Made by a program: the position numbers and the translations under genes. This document shows, one piece after another, positions 2,596 through 13,439 of a DNA stretch of 13,439 nucleotides. The stretch covers positions 1-13,439 of the IMG/VR virus record IMGVR_UViG_3300029653_000151; one strand, 5' to 3'. Origin of the DNA: a virus. Its lineage: Duplodnaviria; Heunggongvirae; Uroviricota; Caudoviricetes. Position 1 is the stretch's first letter. Each line of letters starts with the position of its first letter. Below the pieces are notes generated by a model. That model was not told the DNA's origin, ran no database searches, and was given only the letters and a program-made list of their open reading frames with translations.

Positions 2596-3405
2596 TTATT
2601 CTTCTGAATTATCGATTACACTGTATTCCCCGGTTAATACAGAGGAGTCTGCCGGATCGATTGTCAGTGGTTCCTTTTCATCCATTGATACTGCACGCTG
2701 GATTTCAATTGAGACAGGCAGGTATTTAAACAGGCGACGAATAGCCGTTTTTTTTGCCATTTCTTCCCAGTGAGTTACCCATGGCCCGTTATTACCAGCC
2801 TTACTCTGGCTGCGCACCAGTTCAATCTGTTTGCGCGTCATAACTTCAAACTGAGTCCCTCCGTCTTTCAGTCTTGCGACAGCATAGACGTGGGTCACTG
2901 GTGCATCTTCGTTTTCTCCCGGGCGGTGTATTAACTTTTCATCAAGGCCAAATTCAAAACTAAACTCGTCACCTTCACGGACAACACGGGCTGACAGGCT
3001 GGCGATTTGACCAGAACGGCGAGCCAGATCAATCATGCCGCGATAACCAATGATTAGCTGAACGTTCTTTTTACCGCTCTTTTCGTTTTTATTACCAAAA
3101 GGCAGTAAATATGCGTGGCCGAGGGCGCTACCTGGCTCAAGGCCGAGCTGTGAACACTGAACGATCGCACTGACAAAACTCATGGTGTCACAGTTTCCTA
3201 GCGCCGGAACCTTACGAATTTCTGTGGTGGCGATACGTATCATTCGTTCAGCCGTCATATGGCGTGGGAGAGCTGCTGCCAGTTGCTCTTTCATTGATGG
3301 CTGATTAATAAAGCTGATCACGTCGTTATTTTTTACTGCTGCTGGTGCACGGTTTCCCTGGGTTTTTTGCAGATCGGCTTTTGCGATAGGTGGTTGCTTA
3401 GTCAT
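2596..3405 (-). CDS. recT: RecT single-strand annealing recombinase (269 aa)
   Basis: [36 protein letters not shown]... matches recalled Rac RecT throughout; start chosen at the MTKQ ATG (3405), which overlaps the recE 3' end. Confidence 0.92.
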
Positions 3406-6074
3406 TTGCATACTCCTTAGCCCAGCGGGGCAGTGATAACGTTTTAATAGCTGGCCATTCATCGGTATTCAGGCAGTCAGCCAGGGTCCTCAGATTGCGG
3501 TGATATTCCTGCTGGCCTGCCAGTTTTGCTTCTTCGCCCATCATGAAAATCTCAACCGGGTAACGTCCGCATTCAACAGTTGTGCTGGCAACCAGAAAAA
3601 CGAAAGTTGGCAGCACACCAAACTGTGCTTCATAACCGTCACTGTAGAATGCATCCTGAACGTGATAGCGGTAGTCGTAATAAGCCGTTTTGAATCGTTG
3701 AATATCCGCTGTGGTTTTCACGTCCATGATCCAGTGAAATTCAGGGATAATTTTGTCCGGACGGCACCGACACAAAATTCCTGTTTCAGGATCTTCCCAG
3801 TAAATTGATGATTCAGCGTGTCCGGCGCTTTCAACAAGCCATTGACCCAGCGGCAAAGCCATAACGCTCTGATACATGAGTTCAATTTTCCGGCCTTCTT
3901 CGGCAGTGATAACCGTTTTTCCTGTGCTTGCGCATTCCATCAGAAACGCTTTCTCCTCTTCTTTTCCGGCGGTTGTACGGCGGTTAAATTCAGGTGCCAC
4001 GATAAAGCGGTTACTGAATTCTTCCGGTTCAAGTACACGGCAGTGGAAAGCGGTTCCTAAATCGAGCGTTTTTGTCTTTGTGGTGTCCACTGGGGGCATT
4101 TTTACGCCACAAATACAGAGCCGGAGTATCAGCAATGTCGTCGAGCTGAGACTTACTGACACCGGGACCCGCGTGGTAATTCTCATTCGAAATTCCGTAA
4201 TAAATACCAGGCTCTATGTCTCCTGCGATTACGGGATCTGCGACTTCGCCAGTTTCATCACTGCAATCGCGATGCGGATCGCTGCCAGCATTCTCATTGT
4301 GCGGATGTTCAGGGCCTTCCATTTCCTCCGGATCTTTTTCCTGAGATTCATCCAGATTTTCTTCATTAAAGGTTTCCTGATATGTGGTGTCGCCCATCAC
4401 CGCGCCACAATCAGGGCAGTTGCCGCCACCGCTCTGACCGCGGGCGGCACAGACTTTTTCCGGTTCCTGTTGCGCTACTGGTTCAGATTGTTTCGTTTCT
4501 GGCTCATTTTTCTGTGCATTTTGGCTGTTTTGTTCCGCTTTCTGGTTGTTTTGTTCCGATTTGGGCTGGTTCTGGTTCACAGAATCTCGGGTTTCAATTC
4601 CCTTAACCCATTTCGGATCATTCGGGTCGCTAATCCCTTCAACAAATTCTCCGCGAGAGGCAGCCAGTAATTTGTCTGCATCGACAGGATTTTTGGGCGG
4701 AATGTTTTTCCGGGCTTCATAGAGTTCTGCCCGCAGTTTCTGATATTTCGCATCAACAGAATTTACCTGTGACTGAGCATCCAGCGGCTGCGTGTCCTGA
4801 TGATGTTCAGTTGCATCCGGTTCCACTGTTTCAGCCGTTGCCTGTTCATCTGCCATTGCGCAAGATGGTTGCAGTTTTTCTTCATCATCCTGTTTTTCTT
4901 CTTCTGTTACACGCTGCGGCATCGGGGCAGAGGAACGACCGCAGGCAATATCCACGATTTCTGGATCAGGGTTGGCATGATCAGTTTCAGTCAGTACTTT
5001 GTTAAGATATTCAGTGACGTGTGCGGGGATAACCTCGATCCCAATTGGTGCTTCTTTTACGGACGCAACCACGATGGCGCGGGAATAATCCAGCCCGCCA
5101 GGCATGGTGATGAATTTGTCGCGGAAAACAGAAAAGGGCGGTTTATTTTCAGCGATAATTTCCTCGACACGTTTAGCGTGTGCCGGATGAAGGTTATAAA
5201 TGTCCACGTCCATTGAACGAGCCAGTACGCCAGTGGCTACGTCGCGCGCCAGTGACGTCAGATCGTGAATGAAACCTTCGCCGCGATCGGTGAGGTTCCC
5301 GCCGCCAGCATTAGCGCCGGAAGCCGTGCGCGTGATGCGTGAAACACGATTTCCTTTCATCCACTCTTTTGTCAGCAGACCGCGATCGGTGTAGTCTGCG
5401 TCCAGGTATGCTTCGAAAAAAGCAGTCATCAGCCCCAGGCTTGAATTGCCTGGATTAGGGAAAACTCTGTCAGTATCACGCACCAGTTTGTGGAGATCGC
5501 GAATTTCCAGCGGGTCGAGCAGGCTGGTTTTGTGGGAAACAGCCAGGGCAGTAACGGCTGGTAGTTCTTCAGCTCGTGCAATGTGTAATGCCTGTAGTTC
5601 GTTGCGTGAAACGTGCGTTACCGGTTTTTCGCTGCCGTGTTGAGCAAGCCAGCGAATGGGCAGCTCCTGACCGGAAATCGGGAGTAGCATATTCTCCTCA
5701 ATCTCCGTCATGTCTTCGCCATTAACATTGGTATTGTCAGTGCTGGCTGGCTTGTCCTGCGCAGAGGATGAGGGCGCGATAAATACCATTGTGATGCCAT
5801 CTTCCCCGCCTTTTTCGTAACGGTTGCAGAATTCCGTATCAAATACGCCTTCTGGTGGAAGGTCATCAACAACGGGCAAATTGACGCGAACAGGTTTTTT
5901 AAAGTCATCTTCATCGTAGCCAGCATCGTCAATCGCAACAGCACCACGGGAGATGGCAATGGATAATTTTTTCGCTTCAGCCCAGTAGAAACCGCCTTTA
6001 ATACCGAGACGTTTTCTTACTTTGTCATTTTTTGCTTCGTAATACAGTGGGTAAACTTGTTTATCGGTGCTCAT
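3398..6074 (-). pseudogene. recE: recE (exonuclease VIII) split by a frameshift into a 681-aa N-terminal ORF (4029-6074) and a C-terminal nuclease-domain ORF (3398-4186)
   Basis: Two minus-strand ORFs in different frames overlap by 158 bp and together read as one RecE. The upstream frame reaches ...[10 protein letters not shown] then runs into nonsense and a stop; the downstream frame continues [19 protein letters not shown]... through the PD-(D/E)xK motif (RPDK...IMDVKT) to ...WAKEYAND. The switch sits at a G5 run (plus 4092-4096). Confidence 0.75.
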
Positions 6075-6916: not shown

Positions 6917-7324
6917 AATTATCTCCATTTTTACAAATGAATTTTGTCGATGCGGTGCCTGGTGCCTCCAGGTGACGTTAACCAGTTAACAATTAACGCC
7001 GGATAATCCACCCATAACACTGATGCTTTTAACTGTGCCGCGTGCGCTTAGCCGCATTCACTGCATCACAAAATTCACTTTAAAAAGGGGCGGCAGGGCA
7101 GCCACGGAGTAGAACTGATGCCGCCAAAGACTACACATAGCAATGTCGTTATTTACAACCGGAGGCGCACTCCCACCATTTAAATTTAACAGACAAGAAC
7201 GACTCTTTATGGATATCGGAAATGCGCCTTCGTGTTGTGCCCGGTTTTATTTCACCACCTCCGGGCTTTGGTGGTTTCTGCTATACCCCTACAGCGAGAA
7301 TATTGAATTAATCCAAATAATGGA

Positions 7325-9835: not shown

Positions 9836-10582
9836 ATGAAAAATATTGCGACAGGCGGCGTTCTGGAGCGTATCCGCAGACTGACCCCACCACATGTAAC
9901 CGCCCCATTCAGAACGGTTGCGGAGTGGCGTGAGTGGCAACTTGCTGAAGGCCAGAAACGTTGCGAGGAGATCAACCGCCTGAATCGTCAGTTGCGGGTG
10001 GAAAAAATTCTGAATCGCTCTGGCATCCAGCCGTTGCACCGTAAATGCTCGTTTGCGAATTACCAGGTGCAGAACGACGGCCAGCGATACGCGTTAAGTC
10101 AGGCGAAATCCATCACCGATGAACTGATGACCGGGTGTACAAATTTTGCGTTCAGCGGAAAACCTGGTACCGGGAAGAATCACTTAGCGGCAGCTATCGG
10201 GAATCGCCTGCTGAAAGACGGTCAGACAGTGATTGTGGTTACCGTGGCTGATGTTATGAGCGCCCTGCACGCCAGCTATGACGACGGGCAGTCAGGCGAA
10301 AAATTTTTGCGGGAGCTGTGCGAAGTGGATCTGCTGGTTCTTGATGAAATTGGCATTCAGCGCGAGACAAAAAACGAGCAGGTGGTGCTGCACCAGATTG
10401 TTGATCGCCGGACAGCGTCGATGCGCAGCGTGGGGATGCTGACAAACCTGAACTATGAGGCCATGAAAACATTGCTCGGCGAGAGGATTATGGATCGCAT
10501 GACCATGAACGGCGGGCGATGGGTGAATTTTAACTGGGAGAGCTGGCGTCCGAATGTCGTCCAGCCAGGAATTGCGAAGTGA
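9836..10582 (+). CDS. ydaV: DnaC/IstB-like AAA+ helicase loader (248 aa), YdaV-like
   Basis: Walker [16 protein letters not shown] and Walker B LLVLDEIG; 248 aa matches the length I recall for K-12 YdaV. Confidence 0.85.
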
Positions 10583-10604: not shown

Positions 10605-11366
10605 ATGGAGACTGTTTTTGACGCACTGAAAGCAATGGGAAAAGCCACGTCGGTAGAACTGGCTGCGCGACTTGATATCAGTCGTGAAGAGGTACTGAAC
10701 GAGCTGTGGGAACTGAAAAAGGCTGGTTTCGTTGATAAAAGCGTATACACCTGGCGTGTGGCTGATAACAACGTTCAGCAGGAACAGCCAGCGCCAGAAG
10801 AACAGCCGGAAGAAACCACCACGGCGACAGTAGCGAAAATCTCAGAGTGCGATTTAACCGCAACGATTGAACAACGCGGACCACAAACGGCGGATGAACT
10901 GGCTACGTTTTTCGGCATCACATCACGCAAAGTGGCTTCAACGCTGGCAATGGCAATCAGCAAAGGGCGTCTGATTCGCGTGAATCAGGGCGGTAAATTT
11001 CGTTACTGCATACCGGGTGCTGATTTACCGGCAGAGCCGGAAGCTGCATCCGTAGCGGAAACCGATGGTAAAGCCTTTCCTCAGCCAGCAGGTGTTGCGT
11101 TACCAGTACAGGAAATGATGGCACAGGAAGAAATGAAAACAGAAATCGTGGAAGACATTGTGAGGTTACAGCCATCGATCACCGAAATGAAAGCAGATGA
11201 CCTGATTCTACCATCGCTGCATGTGGCTAACCGCGAGCTGCGCCGGGCGAAAAGTGATGTCCAGAAGTGGGAGCGAGTCTGTGCTGCGCTGCGGGAGCTG
11301 AACAAGCACCGGGATATTGTTCGACAGATTACTGATTCTTCCCGCCGTGTTGTATCGGAAAAGTGA
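10605..11366 (+). CDS. Hypothetical phage protein (253 aa) with two winged-helix-like segments, an acidic linker and a C-terminal coiled-coil-like tail
   Basis: GGAGG 7 nt upstream of the ATG at 10605; segments [30 protein letters not shown] and [32 protein letters not shown] look like winged-helix DNA-binding units. Possibly the intact counterpart of ydaW; not verified. Confidence 0.55.
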
Positions 11367-11381
11367 TTGCCGGAGGCGCTT

Positions 11382-11774
11382 ATGGCAAAAGTATTTACAC
11401 CAGAAGAGCGGGAAGAAGTGAAGGCGCGCATTGTGGAATTCGTGCGCCTGAGCGGACGAGAAACTTTTCGACAACTGGCAGATAAAACGGGTGTCAGTAA
11501 GACCGCTATTCGTCGTTTATCTGGTGCGCTTGCGGCCAGTGGTGATGTCTGGCTCTCTGGTTGCGGGGTATTTCCATCAGAGCAGGCGTATCGCGTATGG
11601 CGTAAGACACCGGAGAAGGCTGCTGACCCGACACTGATTCGAAAGTTACCTGACGGAGAAATACGTCGTTACAACAGACGGCAGAACATAATTTGTCGTG
11701 AGTGCCGCCAGAGCGAAGTTATGCAGCGTGTGCTGGCGTTCTATCGGGGAAACTTTCAGGAGGTGATGGAGTGA
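11382..11774 (+). CDS. Hypothetical phage protein (130 aa) with a possible HTH and a CxxC pair
   Basis: GGAGG 5 nt upstream of the ATG at 11382; stop overlaps the next gene's GTG start. Confidence 0.55.
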   Translation: MAKVFTPEEREEVKARIVEFVRLSGRETFRQLADKTGVSKTAIRRLSGALAASGDVWLSGCGVFPSEQAYRVWRKTPEKAADPTLIRKLPDGEIRRYNRRQNIICRECRQSEVMQRVLAFYRGNFQEVME

Positions 11775-12067
11775 GGGTCAGAGTTTATATTGCCGGTCCA
11801 ATGACGGGATATGAAAATTTCAACCGTGAGGCGTTTCACAAGGCGGAAGAGGAACTGAAACGGGAAGGGCATACCGTCTTAAACCCGGCAGTACTTCCGG
11901 ACGGGCTGACACAGCCGCACTACATGGATATTTGCATGGCAATGATTCGTTGTGTGGATGCGATTTACATGCTGAATGGCTGGCAGCGGTCAGCGGGCGC
12001 TAAGGCAGAGCTGGCACTGGCGGAGAAACTGGGGCATGCAGTGATTTATCAGGAGGTGGCTCAATGA
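11771..12067 (+). CDS. DUF4406-like protein (nucleoside 2-deoxyribosyltransferase-like fold), about 98 aa
   Basis: Motif VYIAGPMTGYENFNREAFHKAEEELKREGHTVLNPAVL is typical of the DUF4406 / deoxyribosyltransferase-like family as I recall it. GTG start at 11771 with GGAGG 7 nt upstream; the ATG at 11801 is the alternative. Stop overlaps the next start (ATGA). Confidence 0.55.
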   Translation: MRVRVYIAGPMTGYENFNREAFHKAEEELKREGHTVLNPAVLPDGLTQPHYMDICMAMIRCVDAIYMLNGWQRSAGAKAELALAEKLGHAVIYQEVAQ

Positions 12068-12525
12068 GAGAGGTTAACTATGAGGCGCTTCGTGAGGCAG
12101 CACAAAACTATCAGTCGACGCTGGCGTGGTATCAGGCTATCCCGGACAGCCCAAATGCTGAACGGGATTGTGATGCGGCTCTTGCTGCGTTTAAGCGTCA
12201 CATCCGTCATCGGGAAGCGGATATTATCGCTGATTTGCTGGATGGACTGGAAGAAGCAAAATCACAACTCAAAGAGCAGCGTGAGTATTACGAAGGCGTT
12301 ATCTCTGATGGGAGCAAGCGTATTGCTGAACTGGAAGCGCGGGAAGTTCAATTACCGACTCGCTACGACCTTCGATATGGACACCCGATAAATGCAGATG
12401 AGCGACATGTCATGATACCTAAAGAAAATGGCAGTTGGCTTTACCTGATTGACCTAGAACACGCATTACGCGTCTCTGGCATTCGCATCAAAGGAGAGGA
12501 GCATGGAAATAAAACCAGAGGATGA
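12064..12525 (+). CDS. Hypothetical phage protein (153 aa) with a central coiled-coil-like region
   Basis: ORF translationally coupled to its upstream neighbour (ATGA); no recognisable motif. Confidence 0.5.
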   Translation: MREVNYEALREAAQNYQSTLAWYQAIPDSPNAERDCDAALAAFKRHIRHREADIIADLLDGLEEAKSQLKEQREYYEGVISDGSKRIAELEAREVQLPTRYDLRYGHPINADERHVMIPKENGSWLYLIDLEHALRVSGIRIKGEEHGNKTRG

Positions 12526-12859
12526 GTTAAGCAATATCGTTTTATTTCCGGTAAAAGAGGATGACCCTCGTAATCAGGTTAATTTTCTTTATGAGCCATC
12601 GGAAAGACCATATTGTCATCACGCCTCTGTCCGGGTTGACGAAAAAGAGCGTCAGGTCCGCTGTAAAATCTGCGGTGCAGTTGTGGAGCCATTTGACTGG
12701 ATGCTCTCTGTGGCGAAAAGAGAAACCAGACTGGCAGATGATGTAAGGCACTTGCGCCAGGAGGAGCGGGAAAGGCGAAAAAATATAGAAAAGCTAATTC
12801 AGATTGAGCGTAACGCGAAAGCGCGGATACGCAGGGCGACAAAATCCAGAACTGAATAA
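12503..12859 (+). CDS. Hypothetical phage protein (118 aa) with a zinc-ribbon-like C..HH..CxxC segment and a basic coiled-coil tail
   Basis: GGAGAGGAG directly upstream of the ATG at 12503; CHHASVRVDEKERQVRCKICG motif; overlaps the 3' end of the preceding ORF. Confidence 0.5.
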   Translation: MEIKPEDELSNIVLFPVKEDDPRNQVNFLYEPSERPYCHHASVRVDEKERQVRCKICGAVVEPFDWMLSVAKRETRLADDVRHLRQEERERRKNIEKLIQIERNAKARIRRATKSRTE

Positions 12860-12982
12860 TTAAATTTAGCTCTGTTAAAAATTTAATCCTTAACCGGAGG
12901 GATTTCTGCACCCTCAGAACATCAGGAGGCCGTCCGAAAGGGCGGTAGTGAAATGCGAAAATTCAAAATAATTATTGAAACG

Positions 12983-13439
12983 TAGACTGGCCCCCTGAAT
13001 CTCCAGACAACCAATATCACTTATTTAAGTGATAGTCTTAATACTAGTTTTTAGACTAGTCATTGGAGAACAGATGATTGATGTCTTAGGGCCGGAGAAA
13101 CGCAGACGGCGTACCACACAGGAAAAGATCGCAATTGTTCAGCAGAGCTTTGAACCGGGGATGACGGTCTCCCTCGTTGCCCGGCAACATGGTGTAGCAG
13201 CCAGCCAGTTATTTCTCTGGCGTAAGCAATACCAGGAAGGAAGTCTTACTGCTGTCGCCGCCGGAGAACAGGTTGTTCCTGCCTCTGAACTTGCTGCCGC
13301 CATGAAGCAGATTAAAGAACTCCAGCGCCTGCTCGGCAAGAAAACGATGGAAAATGAACTCCTCAAAGAAGCCGTTGAATATGGACGGGCAAAAAAGTGG
13401 ATAGCGCACGCGCCCTTATTGCCCGGGGATGGGGAGTAA
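12983..13439 (+). mobile_element. IS2 (IS3 family) insertion sequence, partial: terminal inverted repeat, leader and orfA; the rest lies beyond the window
   Basis: Starts with tagactggccccctgaatctccagacaaccaatatcac..., which I recognise as an IS2 terminus; followed by the InsC ORF. IS2 is about 1.3 kb, so it runs past the window end. Confidence 0.85.
13074..13439 (+). CDS. insC: IS2 OrfA (InsC) transposase DNA-binding subunit, 121 aa
   Basis: [58 protein letters not shown]... matches recalled IS2 InsC; stop TAA at 13437-13439. The frameshift-fused OrfAB would continue beyond the window. Confidence 0.85.

Follow-up and report, generated by a model that had tools for sequence, protein, structure and literature searches.

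The window analysed here, a stretch of 13,439 nucleotides, represents a Rac-like lambdoid prophage that has inserted beside yebY in E. coli. It is 99.96% identical to a yebY prophage in the chromosome NZ_LR898874, for which PGAP gives the gene order int, xis, ralR, recT, recE, kilR, cI-like repressor, cro-like regulator, ydaT, replication gene, ydaV and five CDSs. These five genes form the block described below, which is bounded by a conserved spacer:

ORF1, 10605..11366, + strand: 253 aa; full-length YdaW-type protein (DUF1627); PGAP WP_016236033.1
ORF2, 11382..11774, + strand: 130 aa; DUF977, lambda Ren homologue; PGAP WP_001141099.1
ORF3, 11771..12067, + strand: 98 aa, GTG start; DUF4406, predicted minimal member of the NDT/DNPH1 superfamily
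ORF4, 12064..12525, + strand: 153 aa; Ead/Ea22-like mosaic protein
ORF5, 12503..12859, + strand: 118 aa; small CHCC zinc-ribbon protein with a basic C-terminal helix
Non-coding spacer, 12860..12952, + strand: conserved; bounds the block; contains a GAAA-loop hairpin

All five genes are genuine, and their translation is coupled. The extent, strand and overlaps that a preliminary description had given for the block agree with the sequence and with the RefSeq/PGAP CDSs: stop and start codons overlap in GTGA at 11771-11774 (ORF2/ORF3) and in ATGA at 12064-12067 (ORF3/ORF4), ORF4 and ORF5 overlap by 23 nt at 12503-12525, and NCBI PGAP calls exactly these five CDSs in NZ_LR898874. A Shine-Dalgarno-like motif is present at every ORF start, including GGAGG 5' of 11382 (ORF2), AGGAGG 5' of 11771 (ORF3) and GGAGAGGAG before the ORF5 start at 12503. 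A frameshift fusion of ORF4 and ORF5 was considered and found unnecessary, since ORF5 has its own strong Shine-Dalgarno motif and lies in the +1 frame.

Each of the five proteins matched a curated or PHROG family far above chance in profile-HMM searches (PF07789, PF06163, PF14359, PF13935 and phrog_1621). The descriptors chosen earlier, a tandem winged helix for ORF1, DUF4406 for ORF3 and a zinc ribbon for ORF5, were correct, as judged from the HTH matches, PF14359 and the invariant Cys and His residues. The label of five uncharacterised ORFs holds in that none has an experimentally defined function, but named relatives exist for three of them (YdaW, lambda Ren and Ead/Ea22). The NCBIfam scan was uninformative for all five proteins, PDB sequence searches with each protein and with the DUF4406 profile returned nothing significant, and a search of Rfam placed no RNA family within the block.

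Position within the early operon

The DnaC-like replication gene precedes the block and the nin/hok region follows it. This is the position of lambda ren, and gene order confirms the suggested placement directly 3' of the replication genes. Only 22 nt separate ydaV from ORF1. Scans from cro to the end of ORF5 returned no promoter-like site on the + strand, and no + strand terminator-like site past 10395. With neither type of site and so short a gap, the block is apparently the downstream end of the early rightward operon. The earlier proposal of one transcription unit needs correcting: a unit of these five genes alone is unlikely, given the gap to ydaV and the lack of a promoter-like site of its own. 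On this reading the block would form the variable distal end of the prophage's early rightward (replication) operon, and its five genes would be expressed together after induction or infection because of the shared operon and the translational coupling.

Properties of the predicted proteins

ORF1 matched PF07789 (E = 2.9e-87) and phrog_630 (E = 2e-126). Two winged-helix regions, aa 4-46 and 84-130, were recognised from many concordant sub-threshold HTH matches, and the C-terminal part is a helical tail. YdaW of the K-12 Rac prophage (b1361) is 92% identical over the first 151 residues, and its gene occupies the same place after ydaV. By this comparison ORF1 is full-length YdaW and K-12 ydaW is a truncated copy, a remnant from which the K-12 Rac deletion took the C-terminus together with the following genes, whereas the form in the window is intact at 253 aa. 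In an overexpression screen, truncated K-12 ydaW acted as a blocker of RcaT, the toxin of retron-Sen2 (bioRxiv 10.1101/2020.06.22.160242). Paralogy of ORF1 with ORF2 or Ren was rejected, the pairwise similarity not being significant.

ORF2 matched PF06163 (E = 2.4e-41) and phrog_142, 'Ren-like exclusion protein' (E = 1.4e-43), and aligned with lambda Ren in BLASTP (4e-9, 29% identity, 90 aa). It consists of a winged helix and a C-terminal ECRQSxxMxRVLAxY motif that is common to lambda Ren. Membership in the same PHROG 142, the motif (ECRQS..RVLA.Y) and a location 3' of the replication genes are shared by both proteins, and on these sequence grounds ORF2 is a lambda Ren homologue and DUF977 is the Ren family. 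The two differ in length (130 aa versus 96 aa for lambda Ren) and in exact position, as lambda ren directly follows P whereas ORF1 separates ORF2 from the loader gene; moreover, ORF2 falls in Pfam DUF977, while lambda Ren itself matched no Pfam model. The name 'LygF' on ORF2 homologues was discarded as a mere label from the Salmonella Enteritidis literature that carries no function. Lambda can grow on non-lysogens without ren, and its escape from Rex exclusion reportedly requires Ren (Toothman and Herskowitz 1980). Thomason et al. regard lambda Ren as likely to act in DNA replication, and their two-hybrid assays detected contacts of the Rex proteins with O and with Ren (bioRxiv 10.1101/2021.04.19.439022).

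ORF3 matched PF14359 at E = 5.7e-38 (129.7 bits against a cut-off of 22) over profile positions 2-91 of 91. Its AlphaFold2 model (pLDDT 91, pTM 0.85) was compared with the PDB by Foldseek, and the top 32 matches were all NDT, DNPH1, MilB or BcmB (probability 1.0, TMq 0.62-0.75, with TM 0.70-0.75 for the best). The chains of SPARTA TIR domains were weak matches at ranks 33 and 45. In this model ORF3 has the flavodoxin-like alpha/beta fold of NDT, DNPH1 and MilB, which bears out the earlier remark that DUF4406 shares a fold with the nucleoside deoxyribosyltransferases. The protein nevertheless differs from that superfamily in belonging to a separate Pfam family, PF14359, in lacking a significant sequence match to any solved structure, and in its length of 98 aa as compared with 130-160 aa in characterised members. 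Being short, ORF3 may lack substrate-binding elements.

Among 40 ORF3 homologues D53, S74, G76 and E80 never vary and Y6 hardly does; in 43 more remote DUF4406 representatives E80, S74 and G76 are likewise constant. The resulting motif, Tyr6/Asp53/Ser74-x-Gly-x3-Glu80, has a spacing like that in DNPH1 and DmtZ. Its Tyr, Asp and Glu are candidates for the NDT triad, a nucleophilic Glu with supporting Tyr and Asp/Asn. The proposed equivalence of catalytic residues is based on this spacing and on an hhalign register that places Y6, S74, G76 and E80 on Y24, S98, G100 and E104 of DNPH1; that alignment is not significant (E = 0.49) and was used as a register check only. The corresponding hhalign comparison of the DUF4406 profile with L. 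leichmannii NDT was not significant either. DmtZ is, like ORF3, encoded by a phage, and is a proven dAMP N-glycosidase/transferase of the NDT superfamily with a Tyr6/Asn77/Glu103 triad (PMC12884076). A further difference is that ORF3 is not associated with PurZ or other Z-genome genes. The fold and the conserved residues make it probable that ORF3 is a working enzyme, an N-glycosidase or transferase with a nucleoside or nucleotide as substrate. The predicted reaction breaks the bond between base and sugar in a (deoxy)nucleoside or (deoxy)nucleotide via a covalent Glu80 intermediate; while phage DNA is being made, the enzyme could in this way remodel or sanitise the nucleotide pool.

DUF4406 extends over 18,469 cluster representatives and 526 phage genomes; among its members are records whose names point to N4-type phages of Ruegeria, Roseovarius and Dinoroseobacter. 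Domain fusions were considered as a clue to its substrate, but the actinophage matches annotated as 'deoxycytidylate deaminase', 'MazG-like pyrophosphatase' and 'hydrolase' proved to be single-domain proteins of ~122-128 aa with inconsistent names. The 43 longest close representatives contained no recurrent second Pfam domain, and the fusion argument was abandoned.

ORF4 matched PF13935 (E = 9.5e-12, 46.1 bits against a cut-off of 27), with only aa 3-66 aligned to profile positions 2-80 of 139, and phrog_250 (E = 1.3e-40). The coiled-coil segment at 12247-12336 of the window (nt 1643-1732 of the query) has 90% nucleotide identity to lambda ea22. These matches describe ORF4 as a mosaic of an Ead/Ea22 family N-terminus, a coiled coil and an unrelated C-terminal domain, the N-terminus being shared with the lambda Ea22 / P22 Ead family and the coiled-coil segment with lambda ea22. 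An NMR structure of lambda Ea22 has been published (PMC10834534) and should be included in the PDB, though ORF4, with its C-terminal domain, found no match among PDB sequences at E <= 10. ORF4 also differs in place, since the Ea22 family is located in the exo-xis region and ORF4 in the rightward operon after the replication genes; it has neither the Ea22-type C-terminal domain nor the exo-xis location. It is probably an oligomeric coiled-coil protein of the Ea22 type in which the C-terminal domain has been swapped.

ORF5 matched phrog_1621 (E = 2e-56) and no Pfam family. C38, H40, C54 and C57 are invariant in the family, and the long, basic C-terminal helix (LRxEExxRRxNIEKLIQIERNAKARIRR) is nearly so. 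In the AlphaFold2 model (pLDDT 74) the ribbon comprises aa 43-61 and the helix aa 63-117; a fold search with this model gave no significant match, only a local zinc-ribbon resemblance to TFIIB (E = 0.39). The protein is predicted to bind nucleic acid or another protein through its zinc ribbon and basic helix. In Serratia, Erwinia and Yersinia prophages the homologues are found among NinB, NinG, NinH, RusA and Q, and there they stand between RusA or NinH and the Q antiterminator gene, immediately ahead of the latter, a neighbourhood shared with the small nin-region proteins of lambdoid phages. ORF5 nevertheless matches no named Nin family in Pfam, and its position in E. coli is much further upstream, by the replication module. 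An Ead N-terminus with coiled coil is, rarely, naturally fused to an ORF5 protein (P0123 and P0124), a hint of a functional link between ORF4 and ORF5.

About 2,200 of 5,426 E. coli genomes contain the spacer at 12860-12952 with 90% identity or more, and it is unannotated there; phage Rac-SA53 has kept it behind different genes. It contains a GC-rich hairpin with a GAAA loop (12929-12946); its folding energy is no different from that of shuffled sequence (z = -0.93).

Linkage and distribution of the genes

The full block, in one place and with at least 80% of the query, was found in 461 of 5,426 complete E. coli genomes, and parts of it in 3,322. Fifteen different colinear subsets of the five genes occur in IMG/VR loci. 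When these loci were anchored on ORF1, ORF2 followed in 66 of 67, while ORF3 was present in 3, ORF4 in 5 and ORF5 in 15 of the 67. Across 80 DUF4406 loci from different species, DUF977 lay upstream in 3 of 78 neighbours and Ead downstream in 2 of 72, and ORF5 was present in a single locus; the neighbours there are a mixed set of early phage genes (methylases, RusA, DnaB, lambda P, DUF968 and exonucleases). When loci were anchored on the nearly identical ORF4 allele, ORF3, ORF4 and ORF5 were strongly associated (46/46 and 40/46), though this sample is highly redundant and the linkage may reflect recent common descent; a functional sub-module of ORF3 to ORF5 within E. coli lineages is conceivable.

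Exchange is also visible at the nucleotide level. Strain M15 carries identical ORF2 to ORF5 behind a lambda-P-type replication module, with an ORF1 that is 67% identical, and nucleotide homology to the M15 prophage begins at the border to the replication genes (10569). Homology to Rac-SA53 breaks off within ORF4, at 12107, and is found again in the spacer (12881-12945). The component genes did not co-occur across independent lineages: five-gene linkage is not conserved, and only ORF1 and ORF2 are tightly linked.

Interpretation

The block is best read, with a probability of about 70%, as a mosaic, colinear array of individually exchangeable early-operon accessory cassettes and not as one machine. 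The array takes the place that ren has in lambda, with the replication genes on one side and the nin/hok/Q region on the other. ORF1 and ORF2 are a tightly linked winged-helix pair and, judged from lambda Ren, probably act in replication-associated or exclusion-related processes. Weak anti-exclusion precedents exist for two of the cassettes. What the analysis shows directly is the identity of the genes, the fold of ORF3, the conserved residues and the mosaic distribution; the biochemical activities and phenotypes are inferred throughout.

The preliminary description had suggested the block as the most plausible place for an accessory or counter-defence module; in such a module the five gene products would act together against a host or prophage immunity system. 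Tight translational coupling, the near-identical recurrence of the five-gene order in the 461 genomes and behind two different replication modules, the kinship of ORF2 with a protein needed against Rex exclusion and the effect of truncated ydaW on RcaT all speak for it. Packing and start/stop overlaps are, however, usual throughout lambdoid early operons and are no sign of joint function; linkage was lost once the sample was no longer anchored on the same alleles, 15 colinear subsets exist, and PADLOC gave no significant matches. The ORF1-anchored counts, the 80 DUF4406 loci and the placement of ORF5 elsewhere leave this module improbable, and the check across prophages largely returned the lack of conserved linkage that its proponent had named as telling against it. 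Still less probable is a prophage defence or superinfection-exclusion system guarding the lysogen, for example by nucleotide depletion through the DUF4406 enzyme under winged-helix control. Prophage accessory regions often hold defence genes, and the NDT/TIR-like fold also occurs in defence effectors, as the weak SPARTA matches recall. Against this, ORF3 and ORF4 matched no PADLOC model, ORF5 reached E = 0.013 at best, and ORF1 and ORF2 had weak HTH-type matches only (best E about 3e-4). The genes moreover belong to the lytic early operon, where they come after cro and the replication genes and have no promoter-like site of their own, so they should be repressed in a lysogen, and DUF4406 also occurs in the N4-type records, those phages being virulent.

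A role in replication, in which the ORF1-ORF2 pair and perhaps the entire block serve as accessory factors that tune initiation or the switch to late replication and are not host-conflict genes, is unlikely though it has several points in its favour: the pair directly follows the helicase-loader gene with 66/67 linkage, both proteins are winged-helix, the work of Thomason et al. connects Ren with replication and the Rex proteins with O and Ren, and DUF4406 elsewhere often lies beside DnaB, lambda P, methylases and RusA. The dispensability of ren on non-lysogens weighs against it, as does the occurrence of the pair behind both DnaC-type and lambda-P-type modules, which indicates that it is not matched to one initiator system. 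Rather unlikely, too, is a broader idea that the replication-nin junction of Rac/Stx-type lambdoid prophages is an anti-defence island, with YdaW-types directed at retron-type toxins, Ren-types at Rex-like exclusion, and DUF4406 as a counter-defence N-glycosidase destroying a nucleotide immune signal or toxic nucleotide. Weak anti-exclusion precedents exist for two of the cassettes.

As an array of separate cassettes the finding is ordinary as it stands. Hundreds to thousands of E. coli genomes carry RefSeq entries identical or nearly so to the five proteins, whose families are catalogued but functionally uncharacterised. Its value lies in corrections and leads. The corrections are that K-12 ydaW is a truncated copy of ORF1 and DUF977 is the Ren family. 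The lead is DUF4406, a very large phage-associated branch of the NDT/DNPH1 group that has kept an invariant candidate nucleophile. Its substrate, once found, would annotate thousands of phage genes and could disclose a new nucleotide-pool or anti-immune activity.

Prophage setting and gene content

By nucleotide comparison the window can be assigned to a Rac-type lambdoid prophage of E. coli, integrated beside yebY. Against E. coli MSB1_4I (NZ_LR898874) it shows 99.96% identity, the differences being four substitutions and two single-base indels. The gene order annotated by PGAP in that chromosome is yebY, integrase, excisionase, ralR, recT, recE, kilR, cI-like repressor, cro-like regulator, ydaT, replication gene, ydaV, five CDSs and IS2; ydaV encodes a DnaC-like helicase loader (NF009043, 5e-153). 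The five CDSs, here called the block, match exactly the five ORFs delimited in the preliminary description:

10605-11366, + strand: ORF1, DUF1627 (PF07789, 2.9e-87)
11382-11774, + strand: ORF2, DUF977 (2.4e-41) and PHROG 142 'Ren-like exclusion protein' (1.4e-43)
11771-12067, + strand: ORF3, DUF4406 (5.7e-38)
12064-12525, + strand: ORF4, Ead/Ea22 N-terminal region (PF13935, 46 bits)
12503-12859, + strand: ORF5, phrog_1621

The overlaps described for them are also present (GTGA at 11771-11774, ATGA at 12064-12067, 23 nt at 12503-12525). Since Shine-Dalgarno motifs were found on inspection of the sequence, all five ORFs have family matches (E-values 1e-11 to 1e-126), and homologues with 45-95% identity occur throughout Enterobacterales (for ORF3, in many phyla), the ORFs are real genes, as originally described.

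Consensus scans identified no + strand promoter-like site within the block and only one + strand terminator-like site downstream of cro, which is weak and lies inside ydaV. As ydaV and ORF1 are 22 nt apart, these scans favour reading the five genes as the end portion of the early rightward operon, and not as a transcription unit of their own, which the earlier description had thought probable.

At the attachment border on the yebY side, Rfam matches SraC/RyeA and SdsR/RyeB; it further matches the RalA antitoxin RNA, opposite ralR, and, in the immunity-proximal region, a copy of the DicF sRNA (sites listed: 462-606, 2168-2346, 7088-7139). Compared with the intact recE of NZ_LR898874 (891 aa), the window copy (3398-6074, - strand) has one extra nucleotide, G at 4096, and is broken into two ORFs of 681 aa and 262 aa, so it is probably a pseudogene in the window strain. 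In the stretch 12953-13439, a DUF7167 gene starting at 12953 is interrupted by IS2 at 12983, after codon 10 (MRKFKIIIET); strain M15 has the gene uninterrupted, with 60 aa.

Linkage of the five genes

The block is interpreted here as accessory cassettes, each exchangeable on its own, that occupy the position of ren in prophages of the Rac/Stx type. The five-gene arrangement is common and already annotated. Some part of the block was present in 3,322 of 5,426 complete E. coli genomes, and only 461 carried 80% or more of it at a single site. A spread sample of E. coli showed many other arrangements: ORF1-ORF2 by itself, ORF1-ORF2-ORF5, DUF4752 or other genes inserted, and ORF5 adjoining an HNH endonuclease gene. 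With each gene used in turn as anchor, IMG/VR loci extending 2.3 kb or more on either side contained 15 different colinear subsets. Downstream of ORF1 alleles (67 loci), ORF2 was present in 66, and ORF3, ORF4 and ORF5 in only 3, 5 and 15, respectively. Strong co-occurrence across ORF3-ORF5 was seen only with the near-identical ORF4 allele as anchor, a redundant sample whose members are related by recent descent.

In a set of 80 DUF4406 loci, each from a different species, DUF977 was the upstream neighbour in 3/78 and an Ead-like gene the downstream neighbour in 2/72. ORF5 occurred in a single locus, L004; this contig bears the label of a Collinsella MAG, and its sequences share 94-97% identity with ORF3 and ORF5 of E. 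coli. The other genes next to DUF4406 were early phage genes of diverse kinds (C5, Dam and N6 methylases, RusA, DnaB, lambda P, DUF968, exoribonuclease, lysozyme). In Serratia, Erwinia and Yersinia prophages (L475-L479), ORF5 homologues occupy a fixed place at the nin-region end, after RusA or NinH, which they overlap by 4 nt, and before Q, which follows directly or, in Yersinia, after one small ORF.

Homology to M15 starts at 10569, where an unrelated replication module adjoins; that to phage Rac-SA53 stops at 12107 and picks up again in the spacer 3' of ORF5. Recombination breakpoints coincide with cassette boundaries, and the distribution is one of classical lambdoid mosaicism. A five-gene accessory or counter-defence module, as initially envisaged, is not supported, linkage being variable in E. 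coli, IMG/VR, species-level and other-genus loci. Well-characterised nin-region proteins lacking conserved linkage had been named beforehand as what would speak against such a module; the mosaic distribution shows the lack of linkage, although the genes are not well characterised.

The 93-nt spacer (12860-12952) is without annotation. About 2,200 of 5,426 E. coli genomes have it at 90% identity or more, a number well above that for the five-gene block; Rac-SA53 keeps it behind different genes. It contains a GC-rich hairpin (12929-12946) with a GAAA loop and no U-run, and the folding energy of the spacer is no different from that of shuffled sequence (z = -0.93). The spacer may mark a boundary between mosaic segments, or serve in processing or termination.

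Relatives of YdaW, Ren and Ea22

ORF1 has two winged-helix regions followed by a helical C-terminus. Over its first 151 residues ORF1 shares 92% identity with E. coli K-12 YdaW (b1361, 186 aa); the two diverge beyond, so K-12 ydaW is a truncated remnant of this gene at the Rac deletion endpoint. ORF2 matches lambda Ren in direct BLASTP (4e-9), with a common C-terminal ECRQSxxMxRVLAxY motif. Lambda ren lies directly 3' of P, and escape of lambda from Rex exclusion classically requires Ren. Given the similarity and this position, ORF2 is the counterpart of Ren, and a counter-defence flavour is plausible by homology. According to a preprint, Ren is likely replication-related, and two-hybrid contacts link the Rex proteins with O and Ren (bioRxiv 10.1101/2021.04.19.439022). 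For ORF1 such a flavour is plausible from a single hit: in an overexpression screen, the truncated K-12 ydaW scored as blocking RcaT, the toxin of retron-Sen2 (bioRxiv 10.1101/2020.06.22.160242), beyond which the searchable literature gave no hint of ORF1/YdaW function.

The coiled-coil stretch of ORF4 has 90% DNA identity to lambda ea22; its C-terminal 60 residues had no match among solved structures in a PDB sequence search. Ea22 proteins are modular and favour lysogeny in lambda and Stx phages (PMC7093339, PMC10834534), where their genes lie in the exo-xis region, unlike ORF4. Within the coiled-coil region, residues 65-116 (12256-12411) match MucB_RseB at 23.6 bits, barely above the Pfam gathering cut-off of 22.3. 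This match is probably spurious; a variant allele is named 'RseB domain-containing' by PGAP.

ORF5 has no Pfam family. It contains invariant C38-x-H40 and C54-x2-C57 and a near-invariant basic helix; its C-terminal helix is arginine-rich (ERNAKARIRR). The predicted structure (pLDDT 74), in which a helix of 55 residues comes after a small ribbon, had no significant neighbour in a structural search. In two rare proteins, from E. marmotae and a metagenome (P0123, P0124), an Ead/Ea22 N-terminus and coiled coil are fused in frame to an ORF5-type zinc-ribbon protein (junction ...RIAELEARE on the Ead side, IKPEDELSN... on the ORF5 side), the ORF4-type C-terminal domain being absent. They may be a deletion chimera, or hint at ORF5-type modules as Ea22 C-terminal domains.

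The proposed DUF4406 enzyme

The AlphaFold2 model of ORF3, from a 40-sequence alignment, is confident (pLDDT 91, pTM 0.85). Its top PDB fold matches are nucleoside 2-deoxyribosyltransferases (NDTs), DNPH1/Rcl, MilB and BcmB (probability 1.0, query TM 0.70-0.75), and a BFVD fold search returned many phage proteins annotated as NDTs. Across 40 homologues D53, S74, G76 and E80 are invariant and Y6 nearly so; S74, G76 and E80 remain invariant among more distant DUF4406 representatives. The Ser-x-Gly-x3-Glu spacing equals that of S98, G100 and E104 in DNPH1, and the Asp-to-Glu spacing of 27 is similar to those of DNPH1 (24) and phage DmtZ (26). DmtZ, a dAMP N-glycosidase and phosphodeoxyribosyl-transferase, has the triad Tyr6/Asn77/Glu103, of which Tyr6 and Glu103 are essential by mutagenesis, while Asn77Asp impairs activity (PMC12884076). 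We infer a correspondence of the putative ORF3 catalytic residues to those of known enzymes, for which the sole computed alignment was not significant. On the basis of fold and conserved residues, ORF3 is proposed to be an active enzyme with N-glycosidase or transferase activity towards a nucleoside or nucleotide.

Apparent fusions of DUF4406 to nucleotide-metabolism domains were annotation noise. The family is very large, with 18,469 representatives at E <= 1e-3, and is present in 526 of 50,697 phage genomes, among them phages of Arthrobacter, Vibrio, Gordonia, Mycobacterium and Pseudomonas and records named N4-type roseophages. With a family of this size, the DUF4406 enzyme is the only component of the block that merits follow-up.
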